56,090 nt of DNA from a virus (Duplodnaviria > Caudoviricetes): IMG/VR virus record IMGVR_UViG_3300020045_019291, positions 1-56,090 of that record. The stretch is one strand, 5' to 3'. The position numbers and the translations under genes were made by a program. Position 1 is the first letter of the stretch. Each line of letters begins with the position of its first letter. A model generated the notes under the pieces. The model made no database searches and was not told the DNA's origin. It saw only the letters and a program-made list of their open reading frames with translations. Below are positions 12,688-49,210 of the stretch, piece after piece.

Positions 12688-12943
12688 AGGTTCTGGCTTT
12701 AAATTCCGCAAAGGCTTCCATTTTTGGTTCCAGTTCAGGAATATTCATTTTACTTTCTAAAGTAATTTCTGAAATCAGACAAGTAAAATATAAGATAGTA
12801 TGTATGTAGTCTTCCTGGTACTTGTCAAAGTAATTGAATCGACCTTTCTTTTCTGCCGGTATAATTTCTTCTTTTTTTATTATATCCTGTACTTGCATCC
12901 ACTGTAATCCGCATTCTTTAGCTATTTGGTGCGCAGACTTCAT
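12671..12943 (-). CDS. Hypothetical protein, possible HTH DNA-binding
   Basis: N-terminal SAHQIAKECGL...VQDII resembles an HTH. Confidence 0.55.
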   Translation of the reverse strand: MKSAHQIAKECGLQWMQVQDIIKKEEIIPAEKKGRFNYFDKYQEDYIHTILYFTCLISEITLESKMNIPELEPKMEAFAEFKARTYGKAV

Positions 12944-12946
12944 AAA

Positions 12947-13336: not shown

Positions 13337-13339
13337 TTG

Positions 13340-13687: not shown

Positions 13688-13725
13688 TAGTATATATTAT
13701 TGATACTATTAATTTATTACATTTG
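13663..13725. promoter_or_regulatory. Divergent promoter region
   Basis: Minus-strand TATTTTTG at 13663-13670, motif copy 13667-13692, plus-strand TACATTTG at 13718-13725. Confidence 0.65.
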
Positions 13726-13771
13726 TATTTAATATAGTTTTTAACTATCGTTAGTATAAATTATTAGCACT

Positions 13772-14470: not shown

Positions 14471-15324
14471 TGGCAATAGAGACACCAGAAGCATATCACG
14501 GCACGGAATCTTCCCACGGAAGCTACCAGTTTGTGCCGTTGAAAGAGGTTATTGACGGATTGCTCACGGAAGCCAAACTGGATCCGGACAATCAACTGAA
14601 AAACACCAACCGCGCCTTGATTTTGTACCACGCCAAAATGGGCATCAAGGAATTGACCAAATCCACCGCCAAGGCCATCTTGAAAATAGAAATGACCGTT
14701 CCCAACAATTCCTGCATCGTTATGCCGCAGGATTACGTGGATTACGTGAGCATTTCGGCCGTAGTTGTAGACAGCAGCGGAAACAGGAAATTGCAGCTCC
14801 TTGACGTGAATACCAATATCAATACCGCCACGGGTTACCTGCAGGACAACAATGCCCAAATCATTTTTGACAACGAAGAAAACATTGTCACCGCCGACGC
14901 TTCGAATGCCTACAACATTCCGTACCACAAATATGATTTTATTTCCTCATTAGGCGGGAATGCCACGCAGGACACCGCCAAATTGAGTGCCTACGGGGAA
15001 TTCACCGTTGACGAAAACAACGGAAAAATTGTGTTCAGTTCCAATCTTATCGACAAGGAAGTCGTGGTCGTGTATGAATCTGACGGACTGCAATGGGAAT
15101 CCTTTGGAGAAGGCGACATAAAAGTCCACAAATATATCGAGCAAGCCTTGAAGGACTGGACGTATTACGCCTGTATCGAAAAAAGGATAACGGTGCCGGC
15201 CAACGAGAAGCACCGCGCCTTGAACCGATACAAAACCACCAAGCACATTGCCAGAAAAAACAGGGCAGGACTGGATCTTAACGAGATTTCAAGACAAATG
15301 AGAACCAAAACCAAACACTTGTAA
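14470..15324 (+). CDS. Tail tubular/ring protein
   Basis: Translationally coupled; MPQDYVDY and Y.SDG motifs; precedes nozzle-sized gene. Confidence 0.6.
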   Translation: MAIETPEAYHGTESSHGSYQFVPLKEVIDGLLTEAKLDPDNQLKNTNRALILYHAKMGIKELTKSTAKAILKIEMTVPNNSCIVMPQDYVDYVSISAVVVDSSGNRKLQLLDVNTNINTATGYLQDNNAQIIFDNEENIVTADASNAYNIPYHKYDFISSLGGNATQDTAKLSAYGEFTVDENNGKIVFSSNLIDKEVVVVYESDGLQWESFGEGDIKVHKYIEQALKDWTYYACIEKRITVPANEKHRALNRYKTTKHIARKNRAGLDLNEISRQMRTKTKHL

Positions 15325-23922: not shown

Positions 23923-26900
23923 ATGCCAGACACGAAAAAACCTTGGGAGAAAAATTATACCGTAGAGAATACTGAATCTCAATCGCAAGATAAAAAGCCT
24001 TGGGAGAAAAACTACGTTTCAGATACTGAAAAAAAAAATTCTGTTGGTACTTCAACTTCTACCATTCCAACGGAAAATACGGAATCGGCACAGAAAACTG
24101 GTTCTTCGGTTTCGAAAAGCAGTAGCGGTTTTCCTGAAATAGACACCAATGGCATAGCCCCTAATTACGAGGATATGAAGCCGGCGGCGGAGAATCCCGT
24201 TGGCAAGGAAAAAAGACTGCGAAAAGAATTGGCTAACACAAAAGTGACTCCAGAGAATATGGAGGCCGTTATGGCTGAAACCGACGCGCTTTCCGCCACG
24301 ATAAAAACCAACCAAAAAGCGAAAGACCAAGCCAAAAGCCAGCGCGTAAAAGAACTGGAAACCTCTTTTTACGACGCCACCAGAAACAACAACGACGATG
24401 CCGTGGCCGAACAAAGGCTGAACGATGCCGTAAACACCAACGGCATTTGGAACAACGTCAAGTCCATTGCCAAAAAAACCTTGAACATCGCAATTGACGG
24501 GGCCGTCAAAGCCACGAACAATGTAGGTTTAAACAACTTCAAAATAAACGATGACCCGTTGGCTGAAGAAAAGCAACTGGTAAAAAAACAAGCCTTGAAA
24601 AACAAGGAAAATATTGGAGAAACCGAAATCAACCAAAGAGCGCAGCAAATATTCAAGGAAAAAGAAAAAGACAACTTATTTCTGGACCGCGCCAATTCCT
24701 TTTTGGACAATATGGATGCGGAGGACAAAAACTTGCTAAAACAGGACAGGTACGACAAGACCGTCCACTTGCAGGAAGATAACCTGAAACGATTAAAATA
24801 CAATGCCGCGCTTCAAACCGTGGCCGAAGACAAAATCAGTGATTACAAAAAAATAGAATCCCAATTAACCAAACTCAAAGAAAACGGGGAGGAATTTCCG
24901 GAAGACCTGTACAGCCAATATACCGCATTGGGTTCCGAAATACAAAAACTAGGTTCCCGTTTAAATAAAAACGAAGAGTACGTCCTGAACAACAAAAAAG
25001 ATTTGGGAACTGCCCAGCAGGAATTTGACCTGTTCAAAAGGGAATACGGCGATTTCAACAACATTATTGGAAACATTGCCGTTGCAGCCGGAGAACTGGG
25101 AACGGGAATCCTTGGAGCCGTGAATTACGCTTCCAGTCTTGACGGTCCGTTGGGACAAGTGAGGGCGATGCGCGGACAGGAAGTCGTTTCCGGACTGAAC
25201 GAAGACCTGAAAAATGCCAGAGAAAATTTGCGTACGCCAGTAGAAAGCATCGAAAGCGCTGAAGGTTTCTTGAACTACACTTCGGACTTGGTTGCCAACC
25301 AGATCCCGAACCTTGTTGCCACTTCCACGGGAATTGGAGGTTTGGCATTTATAGGCGCAACTTCAACCGGACAGAAATATACCAAAATGAATGACGAGGT
25401 TCGTCAAGGAAAAGAAACCTACAGCCCTTTGCAAATGGCGGTTGCGCCGTTATTGTATGGCGGAGCCGAGGTTATTTCGGAAATTCCCACCCTGTCCATC
25501 TTGAAAAAAGGAGGTAGGGTCATTGAATCCATCGCCAGAAACGAAGGGGAATTGATCACGAAAACAGCCAAGCAAAAAGCCCTGGAATTGGCCAAGGATT
25601 ACAGTATTGATATGGGCAAGGAAATGACGGGGGAACAATTTACCAATTTCACCCAGAACTTCAACGACAAATTTGTGTTGGGCAAAAAAGACGTCAACTT
25701 GTTGGACAATACCGGACAGGTTTTCAAGGACACTTTCACGTTGACTTCCATATTGAAAGTGGCACCACATACTTTTGGGGTTATTGCCAAGCCTTTCCAG
25801 TCCAAAACGGATTTGGGGACCCTTGACGAGAATTCCAGAAAAATTATCGAGTTCTCCCGGCAATTGAATACCGAAGGATTGACCGACACGGAAAAAAAGG
25901 TGATTCAAAAACAGATCGACAAAGCCACTGCAGAAAGCTCCAAAATCGTTGCCAACACCATTGGAAAAATAGGCGATATGCCCGGTGAATTGTACGACGA
26001 AGTTGTCACCCTAAACACCAAAGCCGGAGAAATAAAAGCACAAGCCCGGGAAATAAACGACGGTAATTTGCCTAATAAAGAAGCTTTGTTGAAAGGACTT
26101 GGCGAAGACTACAAAGCATTGCAGGAGAAAAGAAACGGAATCATAGAAGGAAATACTACCGTCGTGGATATTTTGCCCTTGAAAGAGCAGGATTTGCTTA
26201 AAAAACAAGCCTTGGAAGACTTAGTTACCGAACTGAATCCGGACGGCAAGAAAAACATCAAGATCACCAACGAGCAGGTTGTGGAGCGCGCCAACGAGAT
26301 TTATGCGGAATCGAAAGCGAATGAAAGCAACAAAACACAGACGAGTCAGCCATCTTCTTCGGAAGAGGCTACTCCGAGTGTTAATGCGAAAATCGAGGGT
26401 AATTCCCCTTTATTGTCTTCTGAAGCCCAAGAAAACGGTTCAAAAGCAGCGGTAAATCTCCCTACAAGTATTAGCGAAGAACAAAAAATGCAATTTGGAG
26501 CAGGATATAAGGATTATAATTTTAAAAAAGAAAATGTTTCTACTGACAAAATTAAAATAACAGAACAACCTTCTTTATCTGAAAGGCAAGAATTAGTAGA
26601 TGATATAAAAAGGAATGGAATAACAGAACCTATAGTTGTTGAATATGATAACGAATCGGATAGTTATTATGTTAAAAACGGAAATCATAGAGCTGCAATT
26701 GCAAAAGAATTAGGGATTAAAGAAGTTCCAACTATTGTTGCGGAATATAAAGAAACTAACAATGAAGCAATATCGCCAACAAATACTCCTGCTGATGGAA
26801 ACATTCAGTCTGGAACTGGAGAAATGGGAGAAAGTGGAATTGCCCAGCAAGAAAGTCCTGTTCAAGAAAGTGTACAAAGTTCCGTTGACGGCGGAAAAAG

Positions 26901-29900
26901 TAAAGGAGATTCTAAACCAATCACCACCAAAAAAGTAAAATCGGTGAAGGACGGTGAATTTGACGTGGACTTTGACGAAAAAGGAAATGTGCTGGCCATC
27001 AGGAGTTCTAAAGACGGCAGGGTGATTTCCAAATTTGTGGAGCGAAAGGTGAAACCCAGCAAACAGAATCCGACGGGCAAAATCCTTTCCAAAAACGCCA
27101 ATTATGCAAAGATTGAAGCGGACGCCAAGGGCGAAACTACCGAGAACGAAAAAAACAATCTAGACAAAGAGGCGCAAAAAATACAGGACGAAAAAATCAG
27201 CAGCTTTGAGCCTGGCGACGAATACGAAATAGCCTTGAAATTTGTGGCCGAGGGAGGAAAGGTGAAATTATCATCTGCCAGAAACGAAACCGGCGAAAAG
27301 AATTCGAAGGCAATGAAATGGGCTTCGGGATTCAACAAAGAATCTGATTTGCCTTCAATCGAGAAGGCGGCGGAATCGTTGATGCCTTATGATTCCAATT
27401 TGGATGAAGGCAAAATAAGAGACTCCCTGATTGAAATATTCACTACCTTTGAGAGTCTGGCTGCCGTAAAAAACCATCTTTTGGAGGTTTACGACGAAAA
27501 CAATGCCAAAAAACAGGATCAGGAACGCCACTCTTTTTTGGGTTCATTGTCCGAGAAAGATTTTGCAATGTACCAAGCCATTCAAGCCGAAGATAATTAT
27601 TTGGCAGAATTATCAGATGCAGAAGTAAAAGAGCATTATAACCAAAAAATTAACGAAAATGAACAAGGACAGCAAGAATACGCAAGATCAGAAACCGCTA
27701 ACCAGAGGCCAGAGGTTATTGCTGGACGTAATGATGGAGCGAAAGAAAAAGGAGGAATCCAAGGAAATCCAGAAGGAGAAAGCCAAGGAGGAAATGACGG
27801 GGGAGGAATAGACACGAAATCCACGCCTGACCAAATACTGGAATGGCTTGAAAATGCCGAAAAAGAACTTGACGCCTTTGGTCTAGAAAACTTGTCCGTG
27901 GGCATTCCGATTGTTGTTGCCAAAGCCGCGATCCAGGCTATGAAAATCGCCGTGAAAGCGGGCAAACTTGCAGGAGAAGTCATTCAGGCCGGATTGGACG
28001 CCGTAAAACAAAGCGATTGGTACAAAAACCTGACGCAAACGGAGCAGGACGACATCGAGAATGATTTTAACGGCAATTTCCTGAACAAGATTTCCAACAT
28101 CAACCCGGAAAATGAGCGCCAAACGGAAAACCTTTTGAACCGCGCCGCTTCGGAAAACATTTCGGAAGACGATGCTTATGCCGAAGTAAAATCCACTTTC
28201 GACAAAGCAAGAACAGAATTGTCCAACAAAAAATCATTCAAGGAATATTCCCGTGACGCCTATCGCAATTTCGTGAAACGCTTTACCGACAGGCAGTATT
28301 TGTCCAAAAGCTTGCTGAACAAGTCTGGAATGAAGGCCGTACAGAACTTGATCATCAATTCCCACGGAGCTTCCGGAAGGGCCAAGATCCATTTTGAGGA
28401 AGCCTACAACGAAATTTACAAAAAACTGACCACGGTGGAACGCCGCACGCTTGACGAAATCATTCAGGCCAAACGTTTTATTGCCATAGACAGCAATCGT
28501 GAAGCCAGAGGACTGGAACCAGTTTCGCACCCTAATTTCATCGACAAGAACAAATCGGAAAAATTTCTTTCGAAACTCGAAAAAGAATTGGGCACCGAAA
28601 AGTACAATGATTTGGCACGCCGTGCCGAGGCTTATTTCAAAACTTACAAAGGATTGCTGAAAGATATGCTAGACAATGGATTGATTTCGAAAGAATCATT
28701 CGATTCAATGAGCGACGTTGATTACCAGCCAAGGGTGTTTTTGCAATTCGTTACCGACTTCAACGGGGATTTGGAAACCACGAAACGCAGCAATAATATG
28801 GACAGCAGCGGCTTAAGTTCTGACCAGATTAAATCAATGAGCGAAGGTGATGCCAGCATCCTTGTCTTGAATTCGGAATGGTTGCTTACCAATTCGTTGT
28901 TGTCCCGTTCCAAGGCGATGGCGATGAACAACATCAACAAACGCTTTATGACCGGAGAATTCCAGAAAGCCCAAGAGCGTTTCAATAAATTGGACCCGAA
29001 AAACCTGAAAGGCGACGATGTTCGTTTTTACAAGTATTTCAAGGAATTGTCTTCGAAGGTGATCGACAATCCATTTATTGGAAAAACCGAAAGCGGAACC
29101 GAAAAATATAAATTCGACAAAACTCCAGCCAATTTTGCCAAGGCTTATTATTATGTTGACGGCCAACGCCACGAATTTTTCCTGGAAAAAGAATTGCACG
29201 AGTCCTGGAACGACAATTTTGAAGGAGTTATTAAATCTAATTACAAGGAATTTATATCGTATGCTTCTGGTGCTGCCTTGGTAAAAGCCATTGCCACCGG
29301 AAACAATCCGGCATTCCCCATCGTGAATACGCCAAGGGATTTCTTGTTTACCATTGCCTTTTCTGCGCAGTACAGCAATATTGTGCCTAAAGCAATGCTA
29401 CAGGTCGCCAAAGACGTTGTCAAATCAATCAAGGAGATCCGCAAGCCGCAAAGCGATGTTTTGAAAAAATACATCGAATACGGCGGCGCAATGGACTTTT
29501 TGAGTTCGCAAGGAACCTTGAAAAAAGAATCCCTGCTTGGACAAGCCATCGACAAATCAGTTTCCGCCAATACGCGTGACGCTGCCAAATCCATATTTTC
29601 GAAAGTTACCTTGCACAAGATTTCTTCTTATAGCGAAATGATGTTTCGTTTGGGTATTTTCCAGCGAAGCATCAAGAACCAATTGGATTCTTTGGGGCTT
29701 AAAGACATTTCGGAAGTGACGGACAAGCAGCAATTGGATGATATTTACAGCGAGGCGGTATCTAATGCCAGAAGCATTCTGGATTTCAACCAAGGCGGAG
29801 TTGTCACCAAGGACTTGGAAGCAGTAATCCCGTATATCAATGTAGCTTTTCAGGGAGGAAGAGTTGCTGCATCGGCATTCGAAAATGATCCCGTTGGCAC

Positions 29901-31092
29901 CACGGTAAGGGTTTTACAACTTTCGACCATTGCTTCGACTATTCCCATCGGGATGTCATTGGCCTTGATTTCGGCAATGAAGAGTGACGACGACAAGGAT
30001 AAATCGTCTTATGAAATTTACTTGCACGCATTGGAAGGTATTTCAAAATACCAAAAAATGAAGTATATGAACATCGTAACGGGAAACAAAAATGACGAAG
30101 GCGAATACCAGGTGATCAAGATTGCCAAGGCACAAGAGCTTTCGCCAGTAATGTCGGTTACGGACGATATTTACAATAATTTCATCAGGAGCATTGCCGG
30201 AAAAGAAAAGAAAAGTATCGGGAGCATTACCCAAGATGCCTTGTTTACCTTCAACAGCACCGTGATGCCGGTGGACTTCAGCAGTCCAGGAGGATTCTTT
30301 ACCCGTACTCCAATGGTAAAAGCAACGTTGTCCTACTTGACTGGTTTTGATTTTTTCAGGGAAGAGCCGCTTTCGATGGATATTGGAAAGGTGCCAAAAC
30401 CGGTGGAAGGGATCACGATGTCGAGCACCGAGGATTTTTACAAGAAACTTGGAGAGAATTACGGTTTGTCGCCGATACGTTCCAAGGCTTTTGTGGAGAG
30501 TTTAATTACCGGACCAAGCACAAACCCATTTGTGGGAATGTTGTACGGTGGTGCCGACGCTGTCACTTCTGACAAGGATATGAAACAGATTGGCAAAGAA
30601 TTATTCAACACGGTTTACAAATCGACCGGAAAAAGGGTAATCAGTTATTCTTCGGACTTCAATCGCCAATTGGCCGCCAAGAAAGATTTGCAAGACAAGA
30701 TTGACACCATCAATATGGAAAAGTACAAGGAAAACGCTAAATTCAACGACTTGACCAAGCAATACATCAGCAAGGAAATATCGAAAGCGGAACTGCATTC
30801 GAAAATAAACGAACTGGATCCGGGTAACAGGAATAAAATGTACGACAAGGTTCAGGACAAAGTACGAATGAAAGATCTTGATGGTGCTATTCTGGACATC
30901 AAATACGAGCAAGGAAACGAGGCCAAGGCCTTGATGATAATGCACTATTATGGGGATATTTTTGATGGATCCAAAGACAGCAAGGGAATCATCAGGCAAA
31001 TGCAACGGGCCAAAGGGATATTGACTCCGGCTACCTTGCAGGAATACAACAAGATCAAGGACCAATTAGGAACAAAAAAAACCTCCAATTAA
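23923..31092 (+). CDS. Large ejection / polyvalent virion protein with ParB/Srx-like domain and LPD38-like C-terminal region
   Basis: 2389 aa; N-terminal KKPWEKNY repeat x2; IKRNGITEPIVV...VKNGNHRAAIAKELG; C-terminal N.PRD, LDFNQGG, IPYINVAFQG motifs. Confidence 0.7.
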   Translation: MPDTKKPWEKNYTVENTESQSQDKKPWEKNYVSDTEKKNSVGTSTSTIPTENTESAQKTGSSVSKSSSGFPEIDTNGIAPNYEDMKPAAENPVGKEKRLRKELANTKVTPENMEAVMAETDALSATIKTNQKAKDQAKSQRVKELETSFYDATRNNNDDAVAEQRLNDAVNTNGIWNNVKSIAKKTLNIAIDGAVKATNNVGLNNFKINDDPLAEEKQLVKKQALKNKENIGETEINQRAQQIFKEKEKDNLFLDRANSFLDNMDAEDKNLLKQDRYDKTVHLQEDNLKRLKYNAALQTVAEDKISDYKKIESQLTKLKENGEEFPEDLYSQYTALGSEIQKLGSRLNKNEEYVLNNKKDLGTAQQEFDLFKREYGDFNNIIGNIAVAAGELGTGILGAVNYASSLDGPLGQVRAMRGQEVVSGLNEDLKNARENLRTPVESIESAEGFLNYTSDLVANQIPNLVATSTGIGGLAFIGATSTGQKYTKMNDEVRQGKETYSPLQMAVAPLLYGGAEVISEIPTLSILKKGGRVIESIARNEGELITKTAKQKALELAKDYSIDMGKEMTGEQFTNFTQNFNDKFVLGKKDVNLLDNTGQVFKDTFTLTSILKVAPHTFGVIAKPFQSKTDLGTLDENSRKIIEFSRQLNTEGLTDTEKKVIQKQIDKATAESSKIVANTIGKIGDMPGELYDEVVTLNTKAGEIKAQAREINDGNLPNKEALLKGLGEDYKALQEKRNGIIEGNTTVVDILPLKEQDLLKKQALEDLVTELNPDGKKNIKITNEQVVERANEIYAESKANESNKTQTSQPSSSEEATPSVNAKIEGNSPLLSSEAQENGSKAAVNLPTSISEEQKMQFGAGYKDYNFKKENVSTDKIKITEQPSLSERQELVDDIKRNGITEPIVVEYDNESDSYYVKNGNHRAAIAKELGIKEVPTIVAEYKETNNEAISPTNTPADGNIQSGTGEMGESGIAQQESPVQESVQSSVDGGKSKGDSKPITTKKVKSVKDGEFDVDFDEKGNVLAIRSSKDGRVISKFVERKVKPSKQNPTGKILSKNANYAKIEADAKGETTENEKNNLDKEAQKIQDEKISSFEPGDEYEIALKFVAEGGKVKLSSARNETGEKNSKAMKWASGFNKESDLPSIEKAAESLMPYDSNLDEGKIRDSLIEIFTTFESLAAVKNHLLEVYDENNAKKQDQERHSFLGSLSEKDFAMYQAIQAEDNYLAELSDAEVKEHYNQKINENEQGQQEYARSETANQRPEVIAGRNDGAKEKGGIQGNPEGESQGGNDGGGIDTKSTPDQILEWLENAEKELDAFGLENLSVGIPIVVAKAAIQAMKIAVKAGKLAGEVIQAGLDAVKQSDWYKNLTQTEQDDIENDFNGNFLNKISNINPENERQTENLLNRAASENISEDDAYAEVKSTFDKARTELSNKKSFKEYSRDAYRNFVKRFTDRQYLSKSLLNKSGMKAVQNLIINSHGASGRAKIHFEEAYNEIYKKLTTVERRTLDEIIQAKRFIAIDSNREARGLEPVSHPNFIDKNKSEKFLSKLEKELGTEKYNDLARRAEAYFKTYKGLLKDMLDNGLISKESFDSMSDVDYQPRVFLQFVTDFNGDLETTKRSNNMDSSGLSSDQIKSMSEGDASILVLNSEWLLTNSLLSRSKAMAMNNINKRFMTGEFQKAQERFNKLDPKNLKGDDVRFYKYFKELSSKVIDNPFIGKTESGTEKYKFDKTPANFAKAYYYVDGQRHEFFLEKELHESWNDNFEGVIKSNYKEFISYASGAALVKAIATGNNPAFPIVNTPRDFLFTIAFSAQYSNIVPKAMLQVAKDVVKSIKEIRKPQSDVLKKYIEYGGAMDFLSSQGTLKKESLLGQAIDKSVSANTRDAAKSIFSKVTLHKISSYSEMMFRLGIFQRSIKNQLDSLGLKDISEVTDKQQLDDIYSEAVSNARSILDFNQGGVVTKDLEAVIPYINVAFQGGRVAASAFENDPVGTTVRVLQLSTIASTIPIGMSLALISAMKSDDDKDKSSYEIYLHALEGISKYQKMKYMNIVTGNKNDEGEYQVIKIAKAQELSPVMSVTDDIYNNFIRSIAGKEKKSIGSITQDALFTFNSTVMPVDFSSPGGFFTRTPMVKATLSYLTGFDFFREEPLSMDIGKVPKPVEGITMSSTEDFYKKLGENYGLSPIRSKAFVESLITGPSTNPFVGMLYGGADAVTSDKDMKQIGKELFNTVYKSTGKRVISYSSDFNRQLAAKKDLQDKIDTINMEKYKENAKFNDLTKQYISKEISKAELHSKINELDPGNRNKMYDKVQDKVRMKDLDGAILDIKYEQGNEAKALMIMHYYGDIFDGSKDSKGIIRQMQRAKGILTPATLQEYNKIKDQLGTKKTSN

Positions 31093-37976: not shown

Positions 37977-38381
37977 TTAAAACGGTAAATCGTCCGGTTC
38001 TTCCTCTTTCGGTGGCTGGTTTTGCGTTGGAGGTGTTGTAGGAGCTTGTCTGGCCTGTTGTGGCGACGCTGTTTTGTCCTTGGTGGAAGAGTAGAGTTTT
38101 ATTTCGCGCACGAAACATTTCAGGTTGGCTTTCGTGGAGCCGTCTCCGGCTTGGTATACTTCGATGTCTGGTTTTCCCAATACACCGATCAAGCTGCCTT
38201 TTGTGAGCCAAGGCGCTATTGCCGCATTGTTTGTGAAATAAGCGCATTTGTACCAGGTGGTGACGTTTTCGTTTTTTACTTTTTCGGTGACGGCAAGCGA
38301 AAAATTGATCACTTGTGTTGTTCCGAGGTCTTTTACTTCAGCGTCGTTTCCGATGTGTCCTACCAGTGTGAGTTGTTGCAT
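37977..38381 (-). CDS. ssb: Single-stranded DNA-binding protein
   Basis: LVGHIGNDAE, FSLAVTE, TTWY.C, L.KGS.I.V.G; acidic tail DDLPF. Confidence 0.95.
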   Translation of the reverse strand: MQQLTLVGHIGNDAEVKDLGTTQVINFSLAVTEKVKNENVTTWYKCAYFTNNAAIAPWLTKGSLIGVLGKPDIEVYQAGDGSTKANLKCFVREIKLYSSTKDKTASPQQARQAPTTPPTQNQPPKEEEPDDLPF

Positions 38382-38407
38382 TTTTGTTGAGTTTTAAAGG
38401 TTTTTAA

Positions 38408-39211
38408 TTATATTGGCAATGCCATTTTTGATAAAACGTTTGTGCTAACGTGGGTATAAATTTCCGTCGTTTTGCTACTGGAATGCCCTAAATGTTTCTG
38501 AATTATTCTTAAATCGGTTCCAGCTTCTAATAATGCCGTAGCATTACTATGTCGTAATAGATGAAAGTGATAACCTTTTCCAAGATATTTCTTAACGATC
38601 TGGTTGCAGCTTGTGTGTGAATATTGTAAATCGAATTGACCATTGAATAGAAACTCCTTTGGTTTGTAATCTGTAAAGTAAATTCGTAAAATAGAAAGAA
38701 TCTTTTCTGATAATCCCACAATTCGGTCTTTACGACCTTTACTTTGGCGAATGGTAATAATCATTCGTTTGCTGTCAATGTCTGCTATTTTTAGGTTACA
38801 AACTTCGCTCACTCGCATTCCTGTGGAATACGCCAAAGCTATAATTGCTTTATGTTTTGAGTTTTCAATTTTAGAAATACAATCCAATAAAAATTCCTTC
38901 TCGATAATTTGAGGAAGTTTCCTCTCGGATCTTGGATATTCAATATGTTTGAATTTTAACGGTTGTTTTCCGGTGAGTCTATAAAACAACTTCACGGCAG
39001 AAATTCGATGTTTTCTGCCGTTGATTGAGTTTGCCAATAGCAGCCATTGCTTGATTTGTTTTTCTGAAATTTCAGAAGGCTTGGTTGCTACTTTATTGAA
39101 ATACTCCAAAAACAATTTCACCTGACTTGAATAGTTAGAAATGGTGTTTTCGGAATAGTTTTTCAGTTTTAAATCTTCGGAATACAATTCCACATACTTT
39201 CCGATGTTCAT
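38408..39211 (-). CDS. Integron-integrase-related tyrosine recombinase (no IntI-specific insertion)
   Basis: N-terminal YS.NT..NY SAM-like domain; catalytic R (GMRVSE), K (SKGRKDR), H-x-x-R (HLLRHS), LGH, Y (TTEIYTHV); 267 aa. Confidence 0.9.
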   Translation of the reverse strand: MNIGKYVELYSEDLKLKNYSENTISNYSSQVKLFLEYFNKVATKPSEISEKQIKQWLLLANSINGRKHRISAVKLFYRLTGKQPLKFKHIEYPRSERKLPQIIEKEFLLDCISKIENSKHKAIIALAYSTGMRVSEVCNLKIADIDSKRMIITIRQSKGRKDRIVGLSEKILSILRIYFTDYKPKEFLFNGQFDLQYSHTSCNQIVKKYLGKGYHFHLLRHSNATALLEAGTDLRIIQKHLGHSSSKTTEIYTHVSTNVLSKMALPI

Positions 39212-39235
39212 AGCTTTAGGTGTTAAGTTTGTTGG

Positions 39236-39270
39236 TGTTTACAGATGGCTTTTACAAATAGTAGTTATCA
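39236..39270 (+). other. attI-like primary recombination site
   Basis: First GTTA core (39264-39267), 53 bp upstream of the recombinase ATG, with no hairpin to its left; preceded by TTTACAGAT/TTTACAAAT direct repeat. Confidence 0.65.
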
Positions 39271-39474
39271 CTCAGCTTGAGCGAAACCGTCAAGAACTTC
39301 GGTAATTGAATCTCGAATTTGTTTTAATTCTCTATAATTTAAGTCAATATAAGAATCACTATCTTGTGTTTCCATTTGCATTTGACTACAATCTTTTTGA
39401 ATTCTTATTGTGAATTCTCCATTATTATCATTTCCATTAATTTCAATGTAATTAGCTGTTTTTTTAATTTCCAT
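39268..39474 (-). CDS. Cassette 1 gene, hypothetical (68 aa)
   Basis: ATG MEIKK at 39474; stop codon lies in the GTTATCA core. Confidence 0.7.
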   Translation of the reverse strand: MEIKKTANYIEINGNDNNGEFTIRIQKDCSQMQMETQDSDSYIDLNYRELKQIRDSITEVLDGFAQAE

Positions 39475-39499
39475 TTTGTTTGATTTTAAAAAGCCGAAG

Positions 39500-39632
39500 T
39501 GATAACACACGTTAACCACTATTTAGGCATTTGGTTTAATTTAATTATTTTCTTGTACTTGTTTTTATTTTGCTCAACCGAAACATAAGGCTTTCTTAAT
39601 CCTAAACATTGGTTAGCGTGGGAACGTTAGGC
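39500..39632 (+). repeat. attC-like site 1 (133 bp)
   Basis: TAACA-CACGTTAACCACTATTTAGG...CCTAAACATTGGTTAGCGTG-GGAAC-GTTA. Confidence 0.85.
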
Positions 39633-40265
39633 GATATGTCGAGAGCTACAGCGAGAAGCGACATTTATCAGCCATTTAGCAAAATCAGGAGGCGTTGCTT
39701 CACGTTCTTGTTGTGTTACTCTAGGTTTCCATCCCAAATCCCCTTTTCGATGTCCGCTAGTTATTACGAATTCAACTAATTCAAATCTTAAAGGAATTGA
39801 TGGTAAATCTGATATTTTACACCCACATATATAAAGCAATGTCTTTTTTTCTGCCTTATGTCCCCACCAATGCTGATTGACACATATTGTAAATCCTCCA
39901 TATTCATCCACTTCTCTTCCTATAGGTAAATTCATTTCTTTCCAAAGTTTAGAAGCTCTTGGATGCTCAAGAACGCCCCCAAACTTTCTAATTTGATTAA
40001 TTGACCAAATAGCTAATTCTCTTTCACCTTCTCTAGGTTTTGCCATATGCGATAATTGCCCCCAAGCTCTACAAGGAGGATGCGCTATGATTGGATTTTT
40101 TCCATTAAACTTCCTTGCATCTCTTTTTATATCCCAACAATCAACACCTAAAGTTTTATAAATTGAATTTTCACGAACAAAAAGTGCAGAAACAAAAGAC
40201 ACATCGCCTAACAAATGATTGTCGCTATTGCCAGACTGGTCTTTAATTTGAAATTCGGTTTGCAT
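39627..40265 (-). CDS. Cassette 2 gene, cytosine methyltransferase-like protein
   Basis: IIAHPPCRAWG (PC motif IV-like), VLEHP (motif VI-like), Q.WWGH.A.K.T.LY, R..TP..FA; start codon inside attC2, stop is the TTA of the GTTA core. Confidence 0.7.
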   Translation of the reverse strand: MQTEFQIKDQSGNSDNHLLGDVSFVSALFVRENSIYKTLGVDCWDIKRDARKFNGKNPIIAHPPCRAWGQLSHMAKPREGERELAIWSINQIRKFGGVLEHPRASKLWKEMNLPIGREVDEYGGFTICVNQHWWGHKAEKKTLLYICGCKISDLPSIPLRFELVEFVITSGHRKGDLGWKPRVTQQEREATPPDFAKWLINVASRCSSRHIA

Positions 40266-40336
40266 CTTTATGATTTGTGTTTAATTTAATTACTTGGTTT
40301 ATTTTTTGGCAACAGCGACAATCTTTTCCGTTATCG
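40206..40336 (+). repeat. attC-like site 2 (131 bp)
   Basis: TAACAAAT-GATTGTCGCTATTGCCA...TGGCAACAGCGACAATC-TTTTCC-GTTA. Confidence 0.85.
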
Positions 40337-40363
40337 TTCAGCTTGGTTGGAACGGCTAAAGGA

Positions 40364-40576
40364 TTACTTATGATATTTTGATTTTGGTAATTCAAATAAT
40401 TTTCCATTTCTGTCATATAGATTAGAAAAGTTTTCGTGTTGTGGTTGCATTTTATAAACTATCGGTTCCGGTAAAAAAGGTCTCATTCTACGTTGTCTAA
40501 TTTCTTCAAGCCTTTCTTTTTCTAATTCTTGCAATCGCATAACCATTGCATAGATTCTTAATTTTTGTACTGACAT
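40364..40576 (-). CDS. Cassette 3 gene, hypothetical (70 aa)
   Basis: Single ATG ORF between GTTA 40330 and TAAC 40603. Confidence 0.7.
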   Translation of the reverse strand: MSVQKLRIYAMVMRLQELEKERLEEIRQRRMRPFLPEPIVYKMQPQHENFSNLYDRNGKLFELPKSKYHK

Positions 40577-40599
40577 ATTTTGAAAATAAAAAGCCGAAA

Positions 40600-40738
40600 C
40601 GATAACAAATGATATAAGAGATTTTCGGCTTGGTTTATAAATTTAATTTTTGGGTTTGTACTTTTTTACTTTGGTCTTGAACTGAAAGTTTCGGGATTTA
40701 TCCTGCCGAAAATCCTCTCATATCATCGACCGTTAGTG
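40600..40738 (+). repeat. attC-like site 3 (139 bp)
   Basis: TAACAA-ATGATATAAGAGATTTTCGGC...GCCGAAAATCCTCTCATATCAT-CGACC-GTTA. Confidence 0.85.
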
Positions 40739-40749
40739 GCAACCGTCTG

Positions 40750-41115
40750 CTATTCAGTATAAATATTACTTTTAATTTCAAAACTTCCATCATAATCTTT
40801 ATAAAGTTCTGATAAAAAATAAAAAACACTTTGATTTTCGTCAATACAAATAAAAGCAAGAAGTAATTCATCCCATTTTATAACCCAATCGTTCAATTCT
40901 ATATCTCCTTCATAAATTTCATTTTTATTTTTGTCTAATAATCCAGTAAATCTATTGAAAGAAACAACTTTCCATTGTTTGTCAATTCCAAATCTGATAA
41001 GTCCGTTTTTTTCACTTAACAAAGGAATTATAAAAGTATCAATATCTCCTTTTTTATAAGTTCCCCATTTTTCAACTATTAATTCTAATCTGAATCTATA
41101 TTTTATTTCTTTCAT
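40750..41115 (-). CDS. Cassette 4 gene, YopX-family protein
   Basis: MKEIKYR...FTGLLDKNKNEIYEGDI...EI.SNIY. Confidence 0.8.
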   Translation of the reverse strand: MKEIKYRFRLELIVEKWGTYKKGDIDTFIIPLLSEKNGLIRFGIDKQWKVVSFNRFTGLLDKNKNEIYEGDIELNDWVIKWDELLLAFICIDENQSVFYFLSELYKDYDGSFEIKSNIYTE

Positions 41116-41140
41116 AATTGTTAATTTTTACGTGGTATGC

Positions 41141-41275
41141 CACTAACACTTGCTAAACAAGATTCGGGCATTTGTGATTTATTTAAAGTCATTTTTGTAC
41201 TTGGTTTTATGGTTTTTTAATTAGAGGTTCAGGCTTTTCTAATCCCGAACCTCGTTTAGCAAGAGAACGTTAGCA
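41141..41275 (+). repeat. attC-like site 4 (135 bp)
   Basis: TAACA-CTTGCTAAACAAGATTCGGG...CCCGAACCTCGTTTAGCAAG-AGAAC-GTTA. Confidence 0.85.
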
Positions 41276-41276
41276 C

Positions 41277-41558
41277 TCATTTTAAGAACTCGTAGTCACC
41301 ATTGGCGTTTTTCTTAAAAATTGTAATATAACCTTCTGATATTTTGTATAATTTAAAAAACGATAATACTTTTTGCCACCATTTAACTTTTATATATGGG
41401 TCAAATCCAGCAAGAAATCTTCCGTTTTCGTTAGCAACAAACATAACTTTCGTTTTTTCTTCATCAATCCACACGTAATCACCTTTTATAGGTTTGCGAG
41501 AAAAACGAGTGCTAACATACGCTTGTAGCAAGAGGATTTTAGTCTTTAATTTAAACAT
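41277..41558 (-). CDS. Cassette 5 gene, hypothetical (93 aa)
   Basis: ATG lies inside the attC5 loop and the ORF reads through the left arm. Confidence 0.65.
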   Translation of the reverse strand: MFKLKTKILLLQAYVSTRFSRKPIKGDYVWIDEEKTKVMFVANENGRFLAGFDPYIKVKWWQKVLSFFKLYKISEGYITIFKKNANGDYEFLK

Positions 41559-41640
41559 AGTTTTGTACTTTTAAGATTAGTCATTAATTTAATTTGCAGG
41601 ATTTATCTTTTCCTCCTGCTACAAGCGTCAGCCGTTAGCA
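41510..41640 (+). repeat. attC-like site 5 (131 bp)
   Basis: TAACAT-ACGCTTGTAGCAAGAGGA...TCCTCCTGCTACAAGCGT-CAGCC-GTTA. Confidence 0.85.
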
Positions 41641-41654
41641 TCAATGCTACGAAA

Positions 41655-42155
41655 CTACTTATGAAGAACTCCTCCAGTTAATTCACATATAAATTTTAAT
41701 AGTTTTTCCATTTCTGGATTTCTACTTGCGTAAGACAAATAATCTTGTGGTTGACTTAAATTATGTTTGTTGTCTTTAATGTGTTGCAAACACGCTTTTT
41801 CAGTTAAAAATGAATTTTCCAAACGTTCTTCGTAATCATAATTTACTTTACGGTATCCAGCACTTTCCATTTCGCTTTCACGTTCCCAATTAGACATTTC
41901 TTTAATAGCTTTTTTAGTCAAATCTCCATCACGGTAATCATAAATAGCTTGAATGATTTCCTCTTGTGTTTCAATTAAACTTCCGTCATAGTTCCAAGCA
42001 ACAATTCCGTTGCCTTCTGGAACAGCAATTTGATGTTTAGTTTGTACTTGAAAGAAATAAGGCATTGCAGTTCCTCTATGGCTTTGAGTGTTTATTTCTT
42101 TTGACAAATCCATTAAGAAATTATAAGTTTCGTCATTTACTTGAATTGTTTTCAT
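41655..42155 (-). CDS. Cassette 6 gene, phage hypothetical protein (166 aa)
   Basis: ATG MKTIQV at 42155; TQ..R.TA.P.F and FLT.K.C..HI..N motifs of phage hypothetical proteins. Confidence 0.75.
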   Translation of the reverse strand: MKTIQVNDETYNFLMDLSKEINTQSHRGTAMPYFFQVQTKHQIAVPEGNGIVAWNYDGSLIETQEEIIQAIYDYRDGDLTKKAIKEMSNWERESEMESAGYRKVNYDYEERLENSFLTEKACLQHIKDNKHNLSQPQDYLSYASRNPEMEKLLKFICELTGGVLHK

Positions 42156-42185
42156 AAGATGTTTTAGTTTTAATAACCGCACTAA

Positions 42186-42318
42186 TGCTAACACAGGTTT
42201 GCAAAAATGGCAAGTTCAGGTTTAATTTAAAGTTGTTTTTGTGTCTTTGTGGCTTGGTCTTAAACCAAATTTTTAGGCTTGCTTTTTTGCCACTTCTGCA
42301 AGCCTGATAACGTTATGC
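42186..42318 (+). repeat. attC-like site 6 (133 bp)
   Basis: TAACA-CAGGTTTGCAAAAATGGCAA...TTGCCACTTCTGCAAGCCTG-ATAAC-GTTA. Confidence 0.85.
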
Positions 42319-42337
42319 CTAATACTACTATTTAGGA

Positions 42338-42589
42338 TTAAAGACAACCTCTATTTTTTAATTCAGATATAATTGCCGTTTTTTCATCACTATCTTTTTG
42401 TTTCTGAATATAATTATAACACCATTGAAACATATCATTTGATTCGTTTTTGGGTGTGTTTCCGGCTAGTTCTTTAGGGATATAAATAGTTTTAAATATC
42501 TCTTTTTTACAGTTTGTTAAATTTTCACAATAAACTATTTCTGATTTTCCGTTTTCGTGTTTTTCAACTTTACAATTACAATCTTTCAT
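42338..42589 (-). CDS. Cassette 7 gene, hypothetical (83 aa)
   Basis: Single ATG ORF between GTTA 42312 and TAAC 42636. Confidence 0.7.
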   Translation of the reverse strand: MKDCNCKVEKHENGKSEIVYCENLTNCKKEIFKTIYIPKELAGNTPKNESNDMFQWCYNYIQKQKDSDEKTAIISELKNRGCL

Positions 42590-42632
42590 TTTGTTTTTAT
42601 TTATTATTAATTATTTACTTTTGCCGTACTAG

Positions 42633-42712
42633 GCATAACAGCGGCTACATTTCAGCAGCCGAAATCGTGTTGGTACATAGGCTGCCGAAACTGTAGCCGC
42701 AAAACGTTACAC
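42633..42712 (+). repeat. attC-like site 7 (80 bp, short loop)
   Basis: TAACA-GCGGCTACATTTCAGCAGCC...GGCTGCCGAAACTGTAGCCGC-AAAAC-GTTA. Confidence 0.85.
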
Positions 42713-42738
42713 AATAAACTGGATAAAAAAACTCTATT

Positions 42739-44835
42739 TTAAGGCTTGAAATAAGCCTGAAACCTTACCAATTCTGGATATTCCGGGGAGCGAATCAATC
42801 CGTCTCCGGCACCCGCCAATTGTTCCGCACCGCCTTCGTCCAGCACCACTTTTGAATCAATTTCTTTTGGAACACGGAAACAGATTTGGACAGGGAAGTT
42901 TGCTTTTGCGTCTCCGGTTATTACTTTCACGGAAGCCCTTTGGGTTGCGGCCACGATTCTGAAACCAACGGATCGACCTTTTTGAAGCAGGATTCTAAGG
43001 TTTTCTTCCAGCGTGTTTTTGGTGCCGGTTTTTTGAAGTTTCATTTTTGGCACCAAGGTGTCTCCAAACATTCCTTTCATTTTTTGTTGGCCCACTTCCA
43101 CCATTTCCATAATGTCCAATTCCTTGCCTTTTCGTCCTTGGGATTGGGCGTCGGCAAATTCGTCGAAAATTATTAGTGTTTTTTCGTTGCTTCCGGCTTT
43201 CACGCGCTCATTCATTTCGATAACCAATTCTTCCAAGGCCACTTCGATGTCTTCTATTTCGCTGAAAATGTTGACTCCTTTTAGTCCCATTCTGCAAAAC
43301 TCGAATTTTGGATCAAGGATAAAAATATGTTTGACTCCGGCCAGTTTTGCGAATTCGATAATGGTTTTTAATTCCACCGATTTTCCAGAGCCAGTGGCAC
43401 CACAAACCAAGGCGTGGGGAGTGGAATGGTTGTTCAGGTCCCAATGGATGATTTTCTCGAAATTATCTCGGCCAATAGGTATTTTCATATCTACCAAGTC
43501 TTTTTTGGTGAACAAAAGGTCTTTTTCCCTTTTTTTGGAAAGTTCCACGGCTAGATATGCCTTGCCTTCATAAACCACCAAATCTTTGGAAATCCTAACA
43601 TTGGAAACATTCAAGGCGCTTGCCAAATCTAGTTTATGCGACTGAATGGAAGCGATTTTTACGCCTCCGGAAACTGCCAACAAATAAGTGTTGCTGGAAT
43701 AGCCGTCGAACTTGTGTTCTACTTTGACGGGAGCACCAAAGGTTCTAAGAACGTGCTCGATTTTTTCTTCTGGACTCATATTTTTGTTGCTTAAATCGTA
43801 TTGGATGAATTGGGAGGCATTTTCTTGAAACTGCTTGATTACTTTTGGATTGATGGAGCCAATAGAGGCGTCGCGTATTTTTTTCAAACGTCGGGAAACC
43901 AATTCTCGTTTTGACTCGTCCACGTTGAAATCTTCGACTTCGGCAATCAGGGTTTTTGCCCAAAATTCATAAATTTCGGCACTGTCTACCAGATTATCAG
44001 AATCATTGATCATATAGACGTAATCTGGATCGTTTACGGCTTCAAGCATACGTTTTAACGGCTCGTAAAGTAGAGCTTCGTATAACCTGCGATTATCTTT
44101 ATCCAATTCTATTCTAAAGCAGTTTAATTGGCTTGATTTGTCTCGGTTTTCGGAATATTTGTTCTCGACAAACCAGACTTCATCCACGGCAATTCCTGTT
44201 TTGCTTTCGTAGCAATTAACATAGGTTATCGCTTGGCGACCAATGAAAAGTTTCATTTCCTCCTCGCTAGAAAAAGAGTTTTTCGACTTGTGATCGATAA
44301 CCGCCACTTTTCCAGATTTTAGTTTGACGACTAAATCTATCTTGAAATTGCAGGGAAGCGGGATTTCGACGCCGTTGATCGTCACATATTCGGATCCAAA
44401 AACTTCCACGTCCAAGATTTCTTCAATTTGGTCGGTGTAAATACCAACTTCCTTGATAAAAAATTTGAGCAATGCGGTTGCGGTTTTGCAAGCTTTTATT
44501 TTGCACTCGGCAATGGAGGGGGTCGTTTTTTGAACCTTCCATTTATTAGCCGGTGTTTCGTCGATGGTGTCGAATGCCACGGCTTCCAAATCTGCCAAAT
44601 CAAGGGTGTTTCCTTCCTTCAGCGATTGAAAATAAAATTGAAGGGCATTGTGGTAAGCGGTTCCGGCCACGGTAGTTGACGAATTTTTGATGGTGTAGCC
44701 GTAAATGCTGGTCATTTCGAAAGCTTTTTCGTTTCTGGAAAACTCGGCAACTTTTGAAAAGCTCCAACTGTTTACCAAGAATTGGCTTTTTACATTTTCC
44801 AATTCTTCTTCGGTCATTAATTTGTAGGCGCTCAT
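42739..44835 (-). CDS. PD-(D/E)xK nuclease fused to FtsK/SpoIIIE-type ATPase
   Basis: N-half WSFS, GTAYH, KIDLV...VIDHKS, Q...Y (RecB-like); C-half PHALVCGATGSGKS, IIFDEFAD, GRSVG....ATQR, AEQL.G.GDG. Confidence 0.85.
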   Translation of the reverse strand: MSAYKLMTEEELENVKSQFLVNSWSFSKVAEFSRNEKAFEMTSIYGYTIKNSSTTVAGTAYHNALQFYFQSLKEGNTLDLADLEAVAFDTIDETPANKWKVQKTTPSIAECKIKACKTATALLKFFIKEVGIYTDQIEEILDVEVFGSEYVTINGVEIPLPCNFKIDLVVKLKSGKVAVIDHKSKNSFSSEEEMKLFIGRQAITYVNCYESKTGIAVDEVWFVENKYSENRDKSSQLNCFRIELDKDNRRLYEALLYEPLKRMLEAVNDPDYVYMINDSDNLVDSAEIYEFWAKTLIAEVEDFNVDESKRELVSRRLKKIRDASIGSINPKVIKQFQENASQFIQYDLSNKNMSPEEKIEHVLRTFGAPVKVEHKFDGYSSNTYLLAVSGGVKIASIQSHKLDLASALNVSNVRISKDLVVYEGKAYLAVELSKKREKDLLFTKKDLVDMKIPIGRDNFEKIIHWDLNNHSTPHALVCGATGSGKSVELKTIIEFAKLAGVKHIFILDPKFEFCRMGLKGVNIFSEIEDIEVALEELVIEMNERVKAGSNEKTLIIFDEFADAQSQGRKGKELDIMEMVEVGQQKMKGMFGDTLVPKMKLQKTGTKNTLEENLRILLQKGRSVGFRIVAATQRASVKVITGDAKANFPVQICFRVPKEIDSKVVLDEGGAEQLAGAGDGLIRSPEYPELVRFQAYFKP

Positions 44836-47914: not shown

Positions 47915-49210
47915 ATGGCAACCTTAAAACTATTCATTTCGGGCAAGAAAAGCCCGTCGGAAATCAAAGTCAGATATTTGAATGGTCGCGCTATTGATAT
48001 TGTGGCGGGAACCAAATTGTTTATTTTGTCATCTGCCTGGGATGAAAAAAACCAGAAGATTAGAAACGTTATTTCGGTGCCGGATCGCGACAAACTGAAT
48101 TCAAAATTATTGGAATTGAAAAATCATATTTTCAATGCTTCAAATATGGATTTTACCGAGGGGGAAATCTTGAACAGGATTTGGCTGGAAAAATGTATTG
48201 CCAAATATTTCAATCGTCCGTCGAACGAACTTAAAAAAGCACCGGAATACCACAAGATTTACTTGACTGATTTTGCCGAATGGTGGCTTAAATACAAGGC
48301 TCCAAAATTCAAAGTTTCTGCCGAAAAATATATGGACGATACAACTATTCGCCATTATGAAATTTTGAAAAACCTGATCAAGAAATTTGAAGGGAAGGAC
48401 AAAATCAAGTTTTCTTTGATTGACGATGTTTTACTGGACAAGTTCTCGGAATTCTTGACGATTGAAAAATATGCCGAAAAAACAGCTAAGCGAATGATAG
48501 GAAGGTTCAAGTTTTTTTGCGGTCGAGCCGAAGCGGAAAATATCGTCATTAACAAGTCTTATGAGAATCGCGTTTTTGTAAAAAAAGCCGAGATTGAATA
48601 TAAAGAACCTTACTTTGACGAGATTGAAATAAACAAGATTTACAACCACGATTTTAGCCAAAATCAAACTTTGGACGATGTGAGAGACAATTTAATTATT
48701 GGACTTTGGACCGGATTAAGGGTTTCCGACTTTTTGAGCAGGTTGAAAATTGATAATTTCCACGATGATTTTATCGAGGTGCAGACCGAAAAAACAAAAA
48801 CTTTCGTGAGTATTCCAATTCATTGGATGGTTGCTGACATTTTAAAGAAAAGAAATGGTATTTTGCCGTCAAAAATAAGTGATCCAAAATTCAACAAGCA
48901 TATTAAAACGATTGCCAAAATTTTGAAATTTGATCAAATGATGATGGGCGGCGTTTCTACCGTGGATGAAAAGACGGGAATTAAAAGAAAAGTCGTAAAA
49001 TTGTACGAGAAAAACCAGCTCGTAACTAGTCATATTTGCCGCAGAAGTTTTGCGACAAATATATACGGGACTGTGCCAAACACAACTTTAATGGCAATAT
49101 GTGGCTGGGCTAGCGAAGAACAGATGCTTGATTACATCAAGAAAACGAACAGGGAACACGCAGAGACTTTGAAAAAAGTTTGGGATAACAAATACAATAA
49201 AGCAGTTTAA
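47915..49210 (+). CDS. Prophage integrase (Bacteroidota-type tyrosine recombinase with arm-binding and SAM-like domains)
   Basis: TGLRVSD, EKT, SHICRRSFATN, GW, Y.K; 431 aa next to attP; TATATTTG at 47788-47795. Confidence 0.9.
   Translation: MATLKLFISGKKSPSEIKVRYLNGRAIDIVAGTKLFILSSAWDEKNQKIRNVISVPDRDKLNSKLLELKNHIFNASNMDFTEGEILNRIWLEKCIAKYFNRPSNELKKAPEYHKIYLTDFAEWWLKYKAPKFKVSAEKYMDDTTIRHYEILKNLIKKFEGKDKIKFSLIDDVLLDKFSEFLTIEKYAEKTAKRMIGRFKFFCGRAEAENIVINKSYENRVFVKKAEIEYKEPYFDEIEINKIYNHDFSQNQTLDDVRDNLIIGLWTGLRVSDFLSRLKIDNFHDDFIEVQTEKTKTFVSIPIHWMVADILKKRNGILPSKISDPKFNKHIKTIAKILKFDQMMMGGVSTVDEKTGIKRKVVKLYEKNQLVTSHICRRSFATNIYGTVPNTTLMAICGWASEEQMLDYIKKTNREHAETLKKVWDNKYNKAV

Follow-up and report, generated by a model that had tools for sequence, protein, structure and literature searches.

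The window considered here, i.e., the whole stretch of DNA that was analysed, is a virus record of 56,090 bases from IMG/VR (IMGVR_UViG_3300020045_019291; estimated completeness 77%), and its matches at the DNA level are to Flavobacterium phages only. The plus strand carries the terminase, portal and virion genes. Inside a block of minus-strand genes there is an array of seven units, each made up of a single gene and a hairpin-forming spacer (S1-S7), and beside the array stands the gene of a tyrosine recombinase of the Xer type (Table 1). The segment 38408-42709 is very probably a complete integron-like gene-capture platform of a Flavobacterium-type phage, composed of a Xer-like recombinase, an attI-like insertion site and seven single-gene cassettes, and it apparently functions like an integron.

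Table 1. Recombinase gene, insertion site and cassettes of the array, with positions in the window
Feature	Position	Strand	GTTA start	TAAC start	Content	Own-pair match
Xer-like tyrosine recombinase, putative cassette integrase, 267 aa	38408..39211	-			PF00589 (1.8e-36) and SAM-like N-terminal domain	
attI-like insertion site	39212..39267				52 conserved nt, from the recombinase ATG to the first GTTA core (39264-39267)	
Cassette 1	39265..39626	-	39264	39503	ORF 39268-39519 as listed (probable ATG 39474) and S1 (39497-39629); hairpin fold	9 bp
Cassette 2	39627..40330	-	39626	40209	ORF 39627-40265 (phrog_12600, function unknown, 3.4e-64) and S2 (40203-40333)	10 bp; 14/15 extended
Cassette 3	40331..40732	-	40330	40603	ORF 40364-40576 and S3 (40597-40735)	9 bp
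Cassette 4	40733..41269	-	40732	41144	ORF 40750-41115 (YopX-like; PF09643 YopX, 2e-05; phrog_98) and S4 (41138-41272)	10 bp
Cassette 5	41270..41634	-	41269	41513	ORF 41277-41558 and S5 (41507-41637)	10 bp; 14/15 extended
Cassette 6	41635..42312	-	41634	42189	ORF 41655-42194 (phrog_3205, function unknown, 2.7e-20) and S6 (42183-42315)	8 bp
Cassette 7, distal array end	42313..42706	-	42312	42636	ORF 42338-42589 and short S7 (42630-42709)	10 bp; 13/14 extended

Private inverted repeats of the seven cassettes

Each of the seven units starts with GTTA followed by a sequence of its own and finishes with the reverse complement of that sequence followed by TAAC. The perfect complementarity of the two ends of a unit covers 8-10 bp (Table 1). 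With one mismatch allowed, the runs reach 10, 15, 10, 11, 15, 10 and 14 positions in cassettes 1-7, and about 15 paired positions can be read by eye from the sequence of cassettes 1 and 3 once one bulge is permitted. The 49 remaining GTTA x TAAC combinations match over 4-7 bp each; the terminal GTTA at 42706 has no TAAC end pairing with it over more than 4 bp. As placed in the array, the ends of hairpins S1-S7 match over 4, 4, 4, 5, 7, 4 and 4 bp. In addition to the fixed 4-nt cores there are 38 matched bases in the own pairs, which cannot be chance. An initial annotation of the window had claimed a private terminal inverted repeat in every cassette, extended matches of 14/15 in cassettes 2 and 5 and of 13/14 in cassette 7, and array hairpin ends that match little beyond TAAC/GTTA except for 7 bp at site 5. 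All seven repeats were found again in their places, as were the extended matches and the short pairing within the array.

The same repeats occur in the relatives of the recombinase locus. A scan of IMG/VR found 246 contigs encoding a relative of the recombinase, 80 of which are the viral loci analysed here. Sites were taken by a scanner that requires TAAC and GTTA 50-170 nt apart with complementary inner arms; the cores are therefore a built-in feature of the 159 sites that it selected. In these sites, the flanking G and T are invariant, positions -7 and +10 are conserved, and the lengths of 60-139 nt fall into two size classes. An own-pair match of at least 9 bp was observed in 72 of the 95 cassettes bounded by two sites, against 8 of 938 random non-own pairings, and the most frequent length is exactly 10 bp (55/95). 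The private part amounts to 6 nt, situated, in the recombinase orientation, between a conserved T (89%, 7 nt before TAAC) and a conserved G (74%, 10 nt after the G of GTTA). On the gene-sense strand these two bases would oppose each other as a G.T pair, beyond which A/T-rich pairing restarts. The initial annotation had described a match of 8-15 bp as longer than the 7-bp R box of classical cassettes. It is indeed longer, but the range is narrowed in the viral relatives to a fixed box of 10 bp (4 conserved and 6 private), followed by the conserved G.T. A private repeat of this size is also a practical handle, as it shows the borders of cassettes without a site model and predicts the exact junctions of circles.

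Inverted repeats around a segment beside a tyrosine recombinase are the classical anatomy of an invertible element, so that the private repeats could also be read as crossover sites of an invertase that flips the genes singly in phase variation. A weak match of the recombinase to a tyrosine-type DNA invertase (NF007370, 46.9 bits) and the presence of both gene orientations in bacterial relatives agree with such a reading. However, the gene lies on the recombinase strand in all seven cassettes of the window and in 94 of the 95 in the viral loci, none of those in the window being flipped, and the natural variants are all insertions or deletions, with no inversions. An invertase, moreover, would scramble the array instead of flipping single genes, because the conserved part of the repeat is identical in all cassettes. 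Invertible cassettes are thus regarded as highly improbable.

The gene content of the cassettes is extremely diverse: 152 cassettes form 147 sequence clusters, and none of the seven cassette genes of the window recurs in the 80 viral loci.

Hairpin sites and the proposed circular form of the cassettes

The stretches from each TAAC to the next GTTA are 125-133 nt long, except for S7 with 74 nt, and every spacer folds as a long imperfect stem with a large loop (for S7, -19.3 kcal/mol with a z of -4.66). The inner arms of each spacer are complementary over about 18 pairs, with a loop of 60-80 nt between them. The internal loop beside the core is asymmetric, with a single unpaired nt opposite 4-7 others. 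Among six sites, 15 of the 18 predicted pairs are still paired despite changes on both sides; therefore, selection acts on the pairing and not on the sequence. The hairpins combine an imperfect palindrome, AAC/GTT cores, inner L arms, a variable loop and unpaired bases, as is required of attC sites. The attC sites of integrons range from about 57 to 141 nt, and the lengths of the window sites are within this range.

According to the initial annotation, the stem of each site should become longer if the unit is circularised in silico. In such circles, the stem gains the private 9-10 bp and 3-4 more pairs, stacked on the inner stem, at 6/7 sites. The summed minimum free energy decreases from -121.8 kcal/mol for the array to -163.1 kcal/mol when each site is joined to the start of its own cassette, and it is lower at all seven sites, as anticipated. 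For all seven circle forms, folding is more stable on the minus strand, the sense strand of the genes, than on the plus strand.

A mechanism of the integron type may be proposed for this organisation. The recombinase would exchange strands inside the TAAC...GTTA core, within AAC/GTT, and each cassette would carry one attC-like site, an imperfect hairpin of 74-133 nt with TAAC...GTTA at its base. Owing to the position of the cut in the core, the outer half of the 3' arm of a site would belong, in the array, to the following cassette. Only in the excised circle would the GTTA of a cassette with its 6 nt meet the 6 nt and TAAC of the same cassette, producing a 10-bp stem stacked on the inner hairpin. 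The private inverted repeat would accordingly represent the R''/R' box of each cassette, and selection could preserve its complementarity so that the box is paired when the cassette is free and circular. Cassettes would enter at attI and leave via attI x attC or attC x attC recombination. We infer that free cassette circles exist and that the neighbouring recombinase is the catalyst, including on folded DNA; the substrate would probably be the folded single-stranded DNA of the gene-sense strand.

The loops of the long hairpins share a plus-strand motif, TTTAATTTAA followed after a gap of 5-10 nt by TTTGTACTT, which is located at 39530-39580, 40250-40300, 40640-40680, 41180-41215, 41545-41580 and 42225-42260. 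The chromosomal sites of Flavobacterium saccharophilum have a similar TTTTGTATTTGG. A promoter, a protein-binding site and a part of the fold are candidate roles for this motif. A visual comparison with the Bacteroidetes -33/-7 consensus, made in place of a promoter scan, revealed nothing convincing in either orientation.

The recombinase and the attI-like site

The catalytic domain of the recombinase is intact. Among NCBIfam models, the best score is that of XerA_Arch (187.8 bits; cut-off 220), followed by XerC (155.1; 335.15) and XerD (154.3; 329.6). The integron integrase models score 139.6 bits (TIGR02249; cut-off 265) and 90 bits (NF011946; cut-off 435), each being matched in two stretches. 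The protein thus falls under every curated cut-off, that of integron integrase included, and is Xer-like in sequence while being an equivalog of none. It aligns end to end with the XerA structures 4a8e and 5hxy. With IntI4 (2a3v), residues 12-175 and 213-259 align to 11-177 and 263-309, whereas the 37 residues 176-212 stand opposite the 85 residues 178-262, a stretch of IntI4 that would cover the region of the IntI-specific domain (I2). The I2 domain reads the unpaired, extrahelical bases of attC hairpins and defines the integron integrases. Being devoid of this segment and scoring under the IntI cut-off, the recombinase is not a member of the IntI family.

A Xer-family enzyme working on a single-stranded hairpin has a parallel in CTX-type phages and other elements exploiting XerCD. 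In these, a folded single-stranded attP hairpin with an irregular centre mimics the core site, and one strand is exchanged. Unlike the present system, they integrate a whole phage genome at dif by means of host enzymes; here, a phage enzyme would be combined with many single-gene hairpins.

The distribution of the sites ties them to the recombinase gene. In the 80 viral loci, 148 sites of one orientation lie upstream of it and 4 downstream. Where more than 1.5 kb is available upstream, a site is present in 47 of 53 loci; the downstream counterpart is 2 of 76. A Xer protein resolving dimers at a single chromosomal dif site would not be expected to show this picture, namely a phage gene accompanied, in those 47 of 53 loci, by arrays of 1-7 or more hairpins.

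An insertion site is also found where the array begins, beside the integrase gene. In all 44 related loci examined and in the window, the recombinase ATG is preceded at a distance of about 55 nt by an AAC core (mostly TAAC; CAAC in locus L024). Between the core and the ATG, the sequence is conserved and includes two direct repeats of the TGTAAA type; past the core, the sequences are unrelated. Of the 37 loci whose match extends to the start of the recombinase, 26 cease to be homologous to the window at 39267-39270, and one metagenome contig has its loose end at 39264.

Recombinase relatives were also found in bacterial genomes, the best match being a Flavobacterium metagenome-assembled genome (93% identity), followed by many Bacteroidota at 40-46%. 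In the Bacteroidota loci, sites of the same type lie downstream of the recombinase in 51 cases and upstream in 5; of the 43 loci with over 1.5 kb on the downstream side, 25 have a site. Among 11 consecutive site pairs, 8 show own repeats of 9-10 bp. In the Bacteroidota chromosomes (L088-L167, for example L161 at 8800-16400), the recombinase gene is reversed as compared with the phage layout, and cassette genes have both orientations. In Flavobacterium saccharophilum DSM 1811, the genes of the first two cassettes are oppositely oriented. Many of the Bacteroidota contigs stop within about 1 kb past the recombinase, as repeats would cause. It is slightly favoured, on the whole, that a Xer-like recombinase without I2 performs integron-type capture and excision both in phages of Bacteroidota and, with its gene reversed, in chromosomes, as either a stage preceding the acquisition of I2 or an independent invention.

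Probable cassette movement and comparison with known systems

Metagenome contigs from four runs belonging to four studies match single parts of the array and have their ends at the cores. Cassette 5 with S5 (from 41258, 41266 or 41268 to 41636 or 41637) is present at about 92% identity in contigs of three runs and studies, and in two of these (records 6 and 20) it has unlike sequence on both sides. In contig set X1, the match of record 3 begins at 40331 (cassette 3) after 294 unlike letters, and record 8 begins at 41633 (cassette 6). Further loose ends of contigs lie at 40735/40736, 41637 and 42709, the last in three contigs. The spacers S1, S2, S6 and S7 were also found solitary, S2 for example in X1 record 2. 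In the public runs, coverage of the words sampled from 38300-42800 does not exceed 13% for any run. Apparent joints in the contigs, whose sides measure only 18-37 nt, were left out of account.

Because the contigs carry gene 5 together with S5 and not with S4, the unit is the gene with the hairpin on its start-codon side. The opposite model of boundaries, with the hairpin after the gene (S(n-1) plus gene n), was rejected: it disagrees with these contigs, leaves cassette 1 without a site and would have the recombinase stand at the distal end. All seven cassette ORFs start on the side of their own hairpin that bears R'' and are read toward attI; the layout of gene followed by attC, read from a promoter in attI, is not the one found here. 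The listed ORFs of cassettes 2 and 5 have ATGs inside their own hairpins (40213-40265 and 41517-41558) and run in frame through the R'' box. The real starts may lie past this box, since the PHROG match for cassette 2 does not start before residue 24.

Cultured Polaribacter phages of the Freya group, whose integrase is 34% identical to the window recombinase, differ cleanly in a block of small genes. Compared with Freya_10, the differences in Freya_1, Freya_5 and Freya_8 amount to 4942, 3198 and 902 bp, with flanks that are 100% identical over 2179, 3923 and 3021 bp, respectively. The sequence common at the joints is 3, 3 and 4 nt long and reads (C)AAC, which confines the crossover to the AAC/GTT triplet. 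Two joints (Freya_1 and Freya_5) are at an attI-like site 50 nt before the integrase ATG, and one is between two internal sites. Judged by their sequences, these differences are what attI x attC and attC x attC recombination would be expected to leave behind. Since Freya cores are mostly of the CAAC/GTTG type, the scanner is nearly blank on these phages, and the junctions were read directly. In Freya_10 (L084, 3700-3790), there is also a unit of about 60 nt, GTGTTGGTAAAAGGCGGC...GCCGCTTTTTACCAACGTT, resembling a cassette frame without a gene.

The initial annotation had supposed units of the integron type, each acquired in an insertion of its own, with the crossover in the GTTA core. The circle folds, the stop of homology at attI, the single-cassette contigs and the Freya blocks speak for this supposition: the first bases of a cassette complement its own R'', and the joints of three natural events in relatives are confined to AAC.

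The Xer character of the recombinase would also suit another arrangement, in which each end of a hairpin is a duplex core site for a Xer enzyme of the phage or its host, genes and spacers alternate as pdif-like modules, and no folded DNA takes part. The pdif modules of Acinetobacter plasmids are gene modules in series between inverted 28-bp duplex Xer sites with a central region of 6 nt, exchangeable among replicons. The scores are highest for XerA_Arch, XerC and XerD and lower for IntI, Bacteroidota chromosomes encode relatives of the enzyme, and a host enzyme of this kind could serve the cassettes of phages that have no recombinase. Such duplex modules, however, do not account for arms with about 18 complementary pairs over a loop of 60-80 nt, most of them with changes on both sides. 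The ends of a hairpin cannot be equivalent duplex sites because the gaps between core and inner arm differ, being 1 nt at one end and 4-7 nt at the other. The 3-4 nt shared by Freya partner sites are too short for the classical exchange with a 6-8-bp overlap. In contrast to pdif modules, the window sites are covarying hairpins of 74-133 nt with unequal spacers, and no 28-bp duplex site of the pdif type is evident in the array, where no pdif model was run. Duplex modules are therefore improbable.

Arrays of the same kind are also present in phages without the enzyme. Flavobacterium phage 11b (L001) has hairpin-bounded cassettes at 3099-3759, and mumin6-1 (L002, 2343-8235) has nine sites, with a 10-bp own match in 6 of the 8 adjacent site pairs and three annotated DNA methyltransferase genes sitting in cassettes. 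The initial annotation had named the same flanks around homologous genes without any recombinase, along with a lack of circle junctions, as a sign of a purely RNA-structural role. These two phages partly present that picture, the flanks being there, but they look like integrase-less arrays, analogous to CALINs (integrase-less clusters of attC sites), and not like a sign of an RNA-only role.

Such arrays would also be expected if the hairpins were regulatory junctions (promoters, terminators or RNA-processing sites) between small early genes, shuffled by homologous recombination between co-infecting phages, the recombinase being a lysogeny integrase or a dimer resolvase. The promoter and stem-loop cassettes of T4-type phages may be likened to junctions of this sort. 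Hairpin types recur at 83-97% identity in unrelated phages without the flanking genes: S1 is 91% identical to an element of phage 11b, S2 alone is 97% identical in locus L043, and S6 is 83% identical to an element of the mumin-type Flavobacterium phages. The conserved TTTAATTTAA..TTTGTACTT motif on the plus strand is another point in favour of this explanation. In the portion of Bartlau et al. 2021 (PMC8776804) consulted, the integrases of Freya, Leef and Ingeline are treated as markers of lysogeny. Nevertheless, exchange inside hairpins would not maintain a private complementarity of 6 nt across each gene, would not hold TAAC at a constant distance of 55 nt from the start of the recombinase in all 44 loci, and would not yield joints sharing only (C)AAC. 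The orientation and position of the sites relative to the recombinase are also nearly invariant (148 against 4). For lysogeny, a second and larger tyrosine integrase of 431 aa (47915-49210 on the plus strand; phrog_216, 2.9e-10) is available, which is probably the lysogeny integrase of the window phage. Regulatory junctions are, hence, considered quite improbable.

Several observations weigh against an integron-like platform served by its own recombinase. The enzyme has no counterpart of the stretch by which integron integrases recognise extrahelical bases, so that its action on folded hairpins is putative. The R box pairs over only 4-7 bp in the array, so that excision must tolerate a mostly unpaired outer arm. 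The enzyme is not required for maintenance, because cassettes of this type occur in phages 11b and mumin6-1, with a recombinase homologue in 0 of 2 records. As the S1, S2, S6 and S7 types are common to phages without their genes, homologous recombination between similar hairpins might also move cassettes. The Freya phages are distant relatives with cores of another type, in which the scanner found one weak site (Freya_10) or none (Freya_1). No circular junction or empty site was present in the contigs of the four runs, although assembled contigs drop rare forms.

The platform is similar to classical and sedentary chromosomal integrons in having a tyrosine recombinase beside an insertion site followed by an array of single-gene cassettes, one imperfect hairpin with AAC/GTT cores per cassette, a crossover in the core such that the first bases of a cassette complement its own R'', and a huge, almost non-redundant pool of cassettes. 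It differs from them in the recombinase, which has no IntI-specific segment and scores under the integron integrase cut-off, in the longer R box, and in the hairpin being upstream of its gene, with genes read toward attI and the recombinase. Here, the recombinase is also co-directional with the cassette genes, and the platform is situated within a phage genome. The assignment to integrons made in the initial annotation accordingly stands for the mechanism but not for the classical family, given the Xer-like enzyme without the IntI segment and the reversed genes.

The closest published counterparts are CALINs in phages. The consulted part of Qi et al. 2023 (PMC9892861) describes such clusters and the in vivo recombination of a Polaribacter phage site by IntI1; that part describes no dedicated phage integrase for those attC sites. 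As in the window, the hairpins are of the attC type and lie between small genes; the phages concerned are virulent, among them a Flavobacteriia (Polaribacter) phage, and methyltransferases are among the cassettes, which makes mumin6-1 similar. The window array, unlike these clusters, the P12002L sites among them, is joined to a Xer-like recombinase of its own and to an attI. No publication was found that ties a Xer-like recombinase to attC-like arrays in flavobacterial phages or Bacteroidota, the supplements of Qi 2023 and Bartlau 2021 being outside this search.

In the consulted part of Escudero et al. 2016 (PMC4792948), the origin of the extra domain of IntI and of attC sites is presented as a chicken-and-egg paradox. 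The array considered here, in which a plain Xer-like enzyme goes together with attC-like hairpins, an attI and a turnover of cassettes, makes the question of the origin of integrons testable at the bench, in particular whether a Xer-like enzyme recombines folded hairpins and how the strand is chosen. Integrons are rare in Bacteroidetes according to the consulted part of the IntegronFinder 2.0 paper (10.1101/2022.02.28.482270); the present reading places integron-like gene capture inside phage genomes of a phylum for which they are thus seldom reported. It also offers a possible mechanism by which the small-gene regions of flavobacterial phages become mosaic. If it is true, the phages of Bacteroidota share a vast pool of swappable genes, methyltransferases included.

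Some further features of the window may be mentioned. A candidate eighth site at 13165-13277 has TAAC...GTTA with weak complementarity of the arms (stem score 12); it lies within the structural genes and is probably due to chance. Directly distal to the array, the minus strand encodes a 698-aa protein (42739-44835) with a PD-(D/E)XK nuclease domain (residues 23-212) and an ATPase of the FtsK/HerA type. The structural module also contains, on the plus strand, an exceptionally long ORF (2389 aa; 23923-31092).

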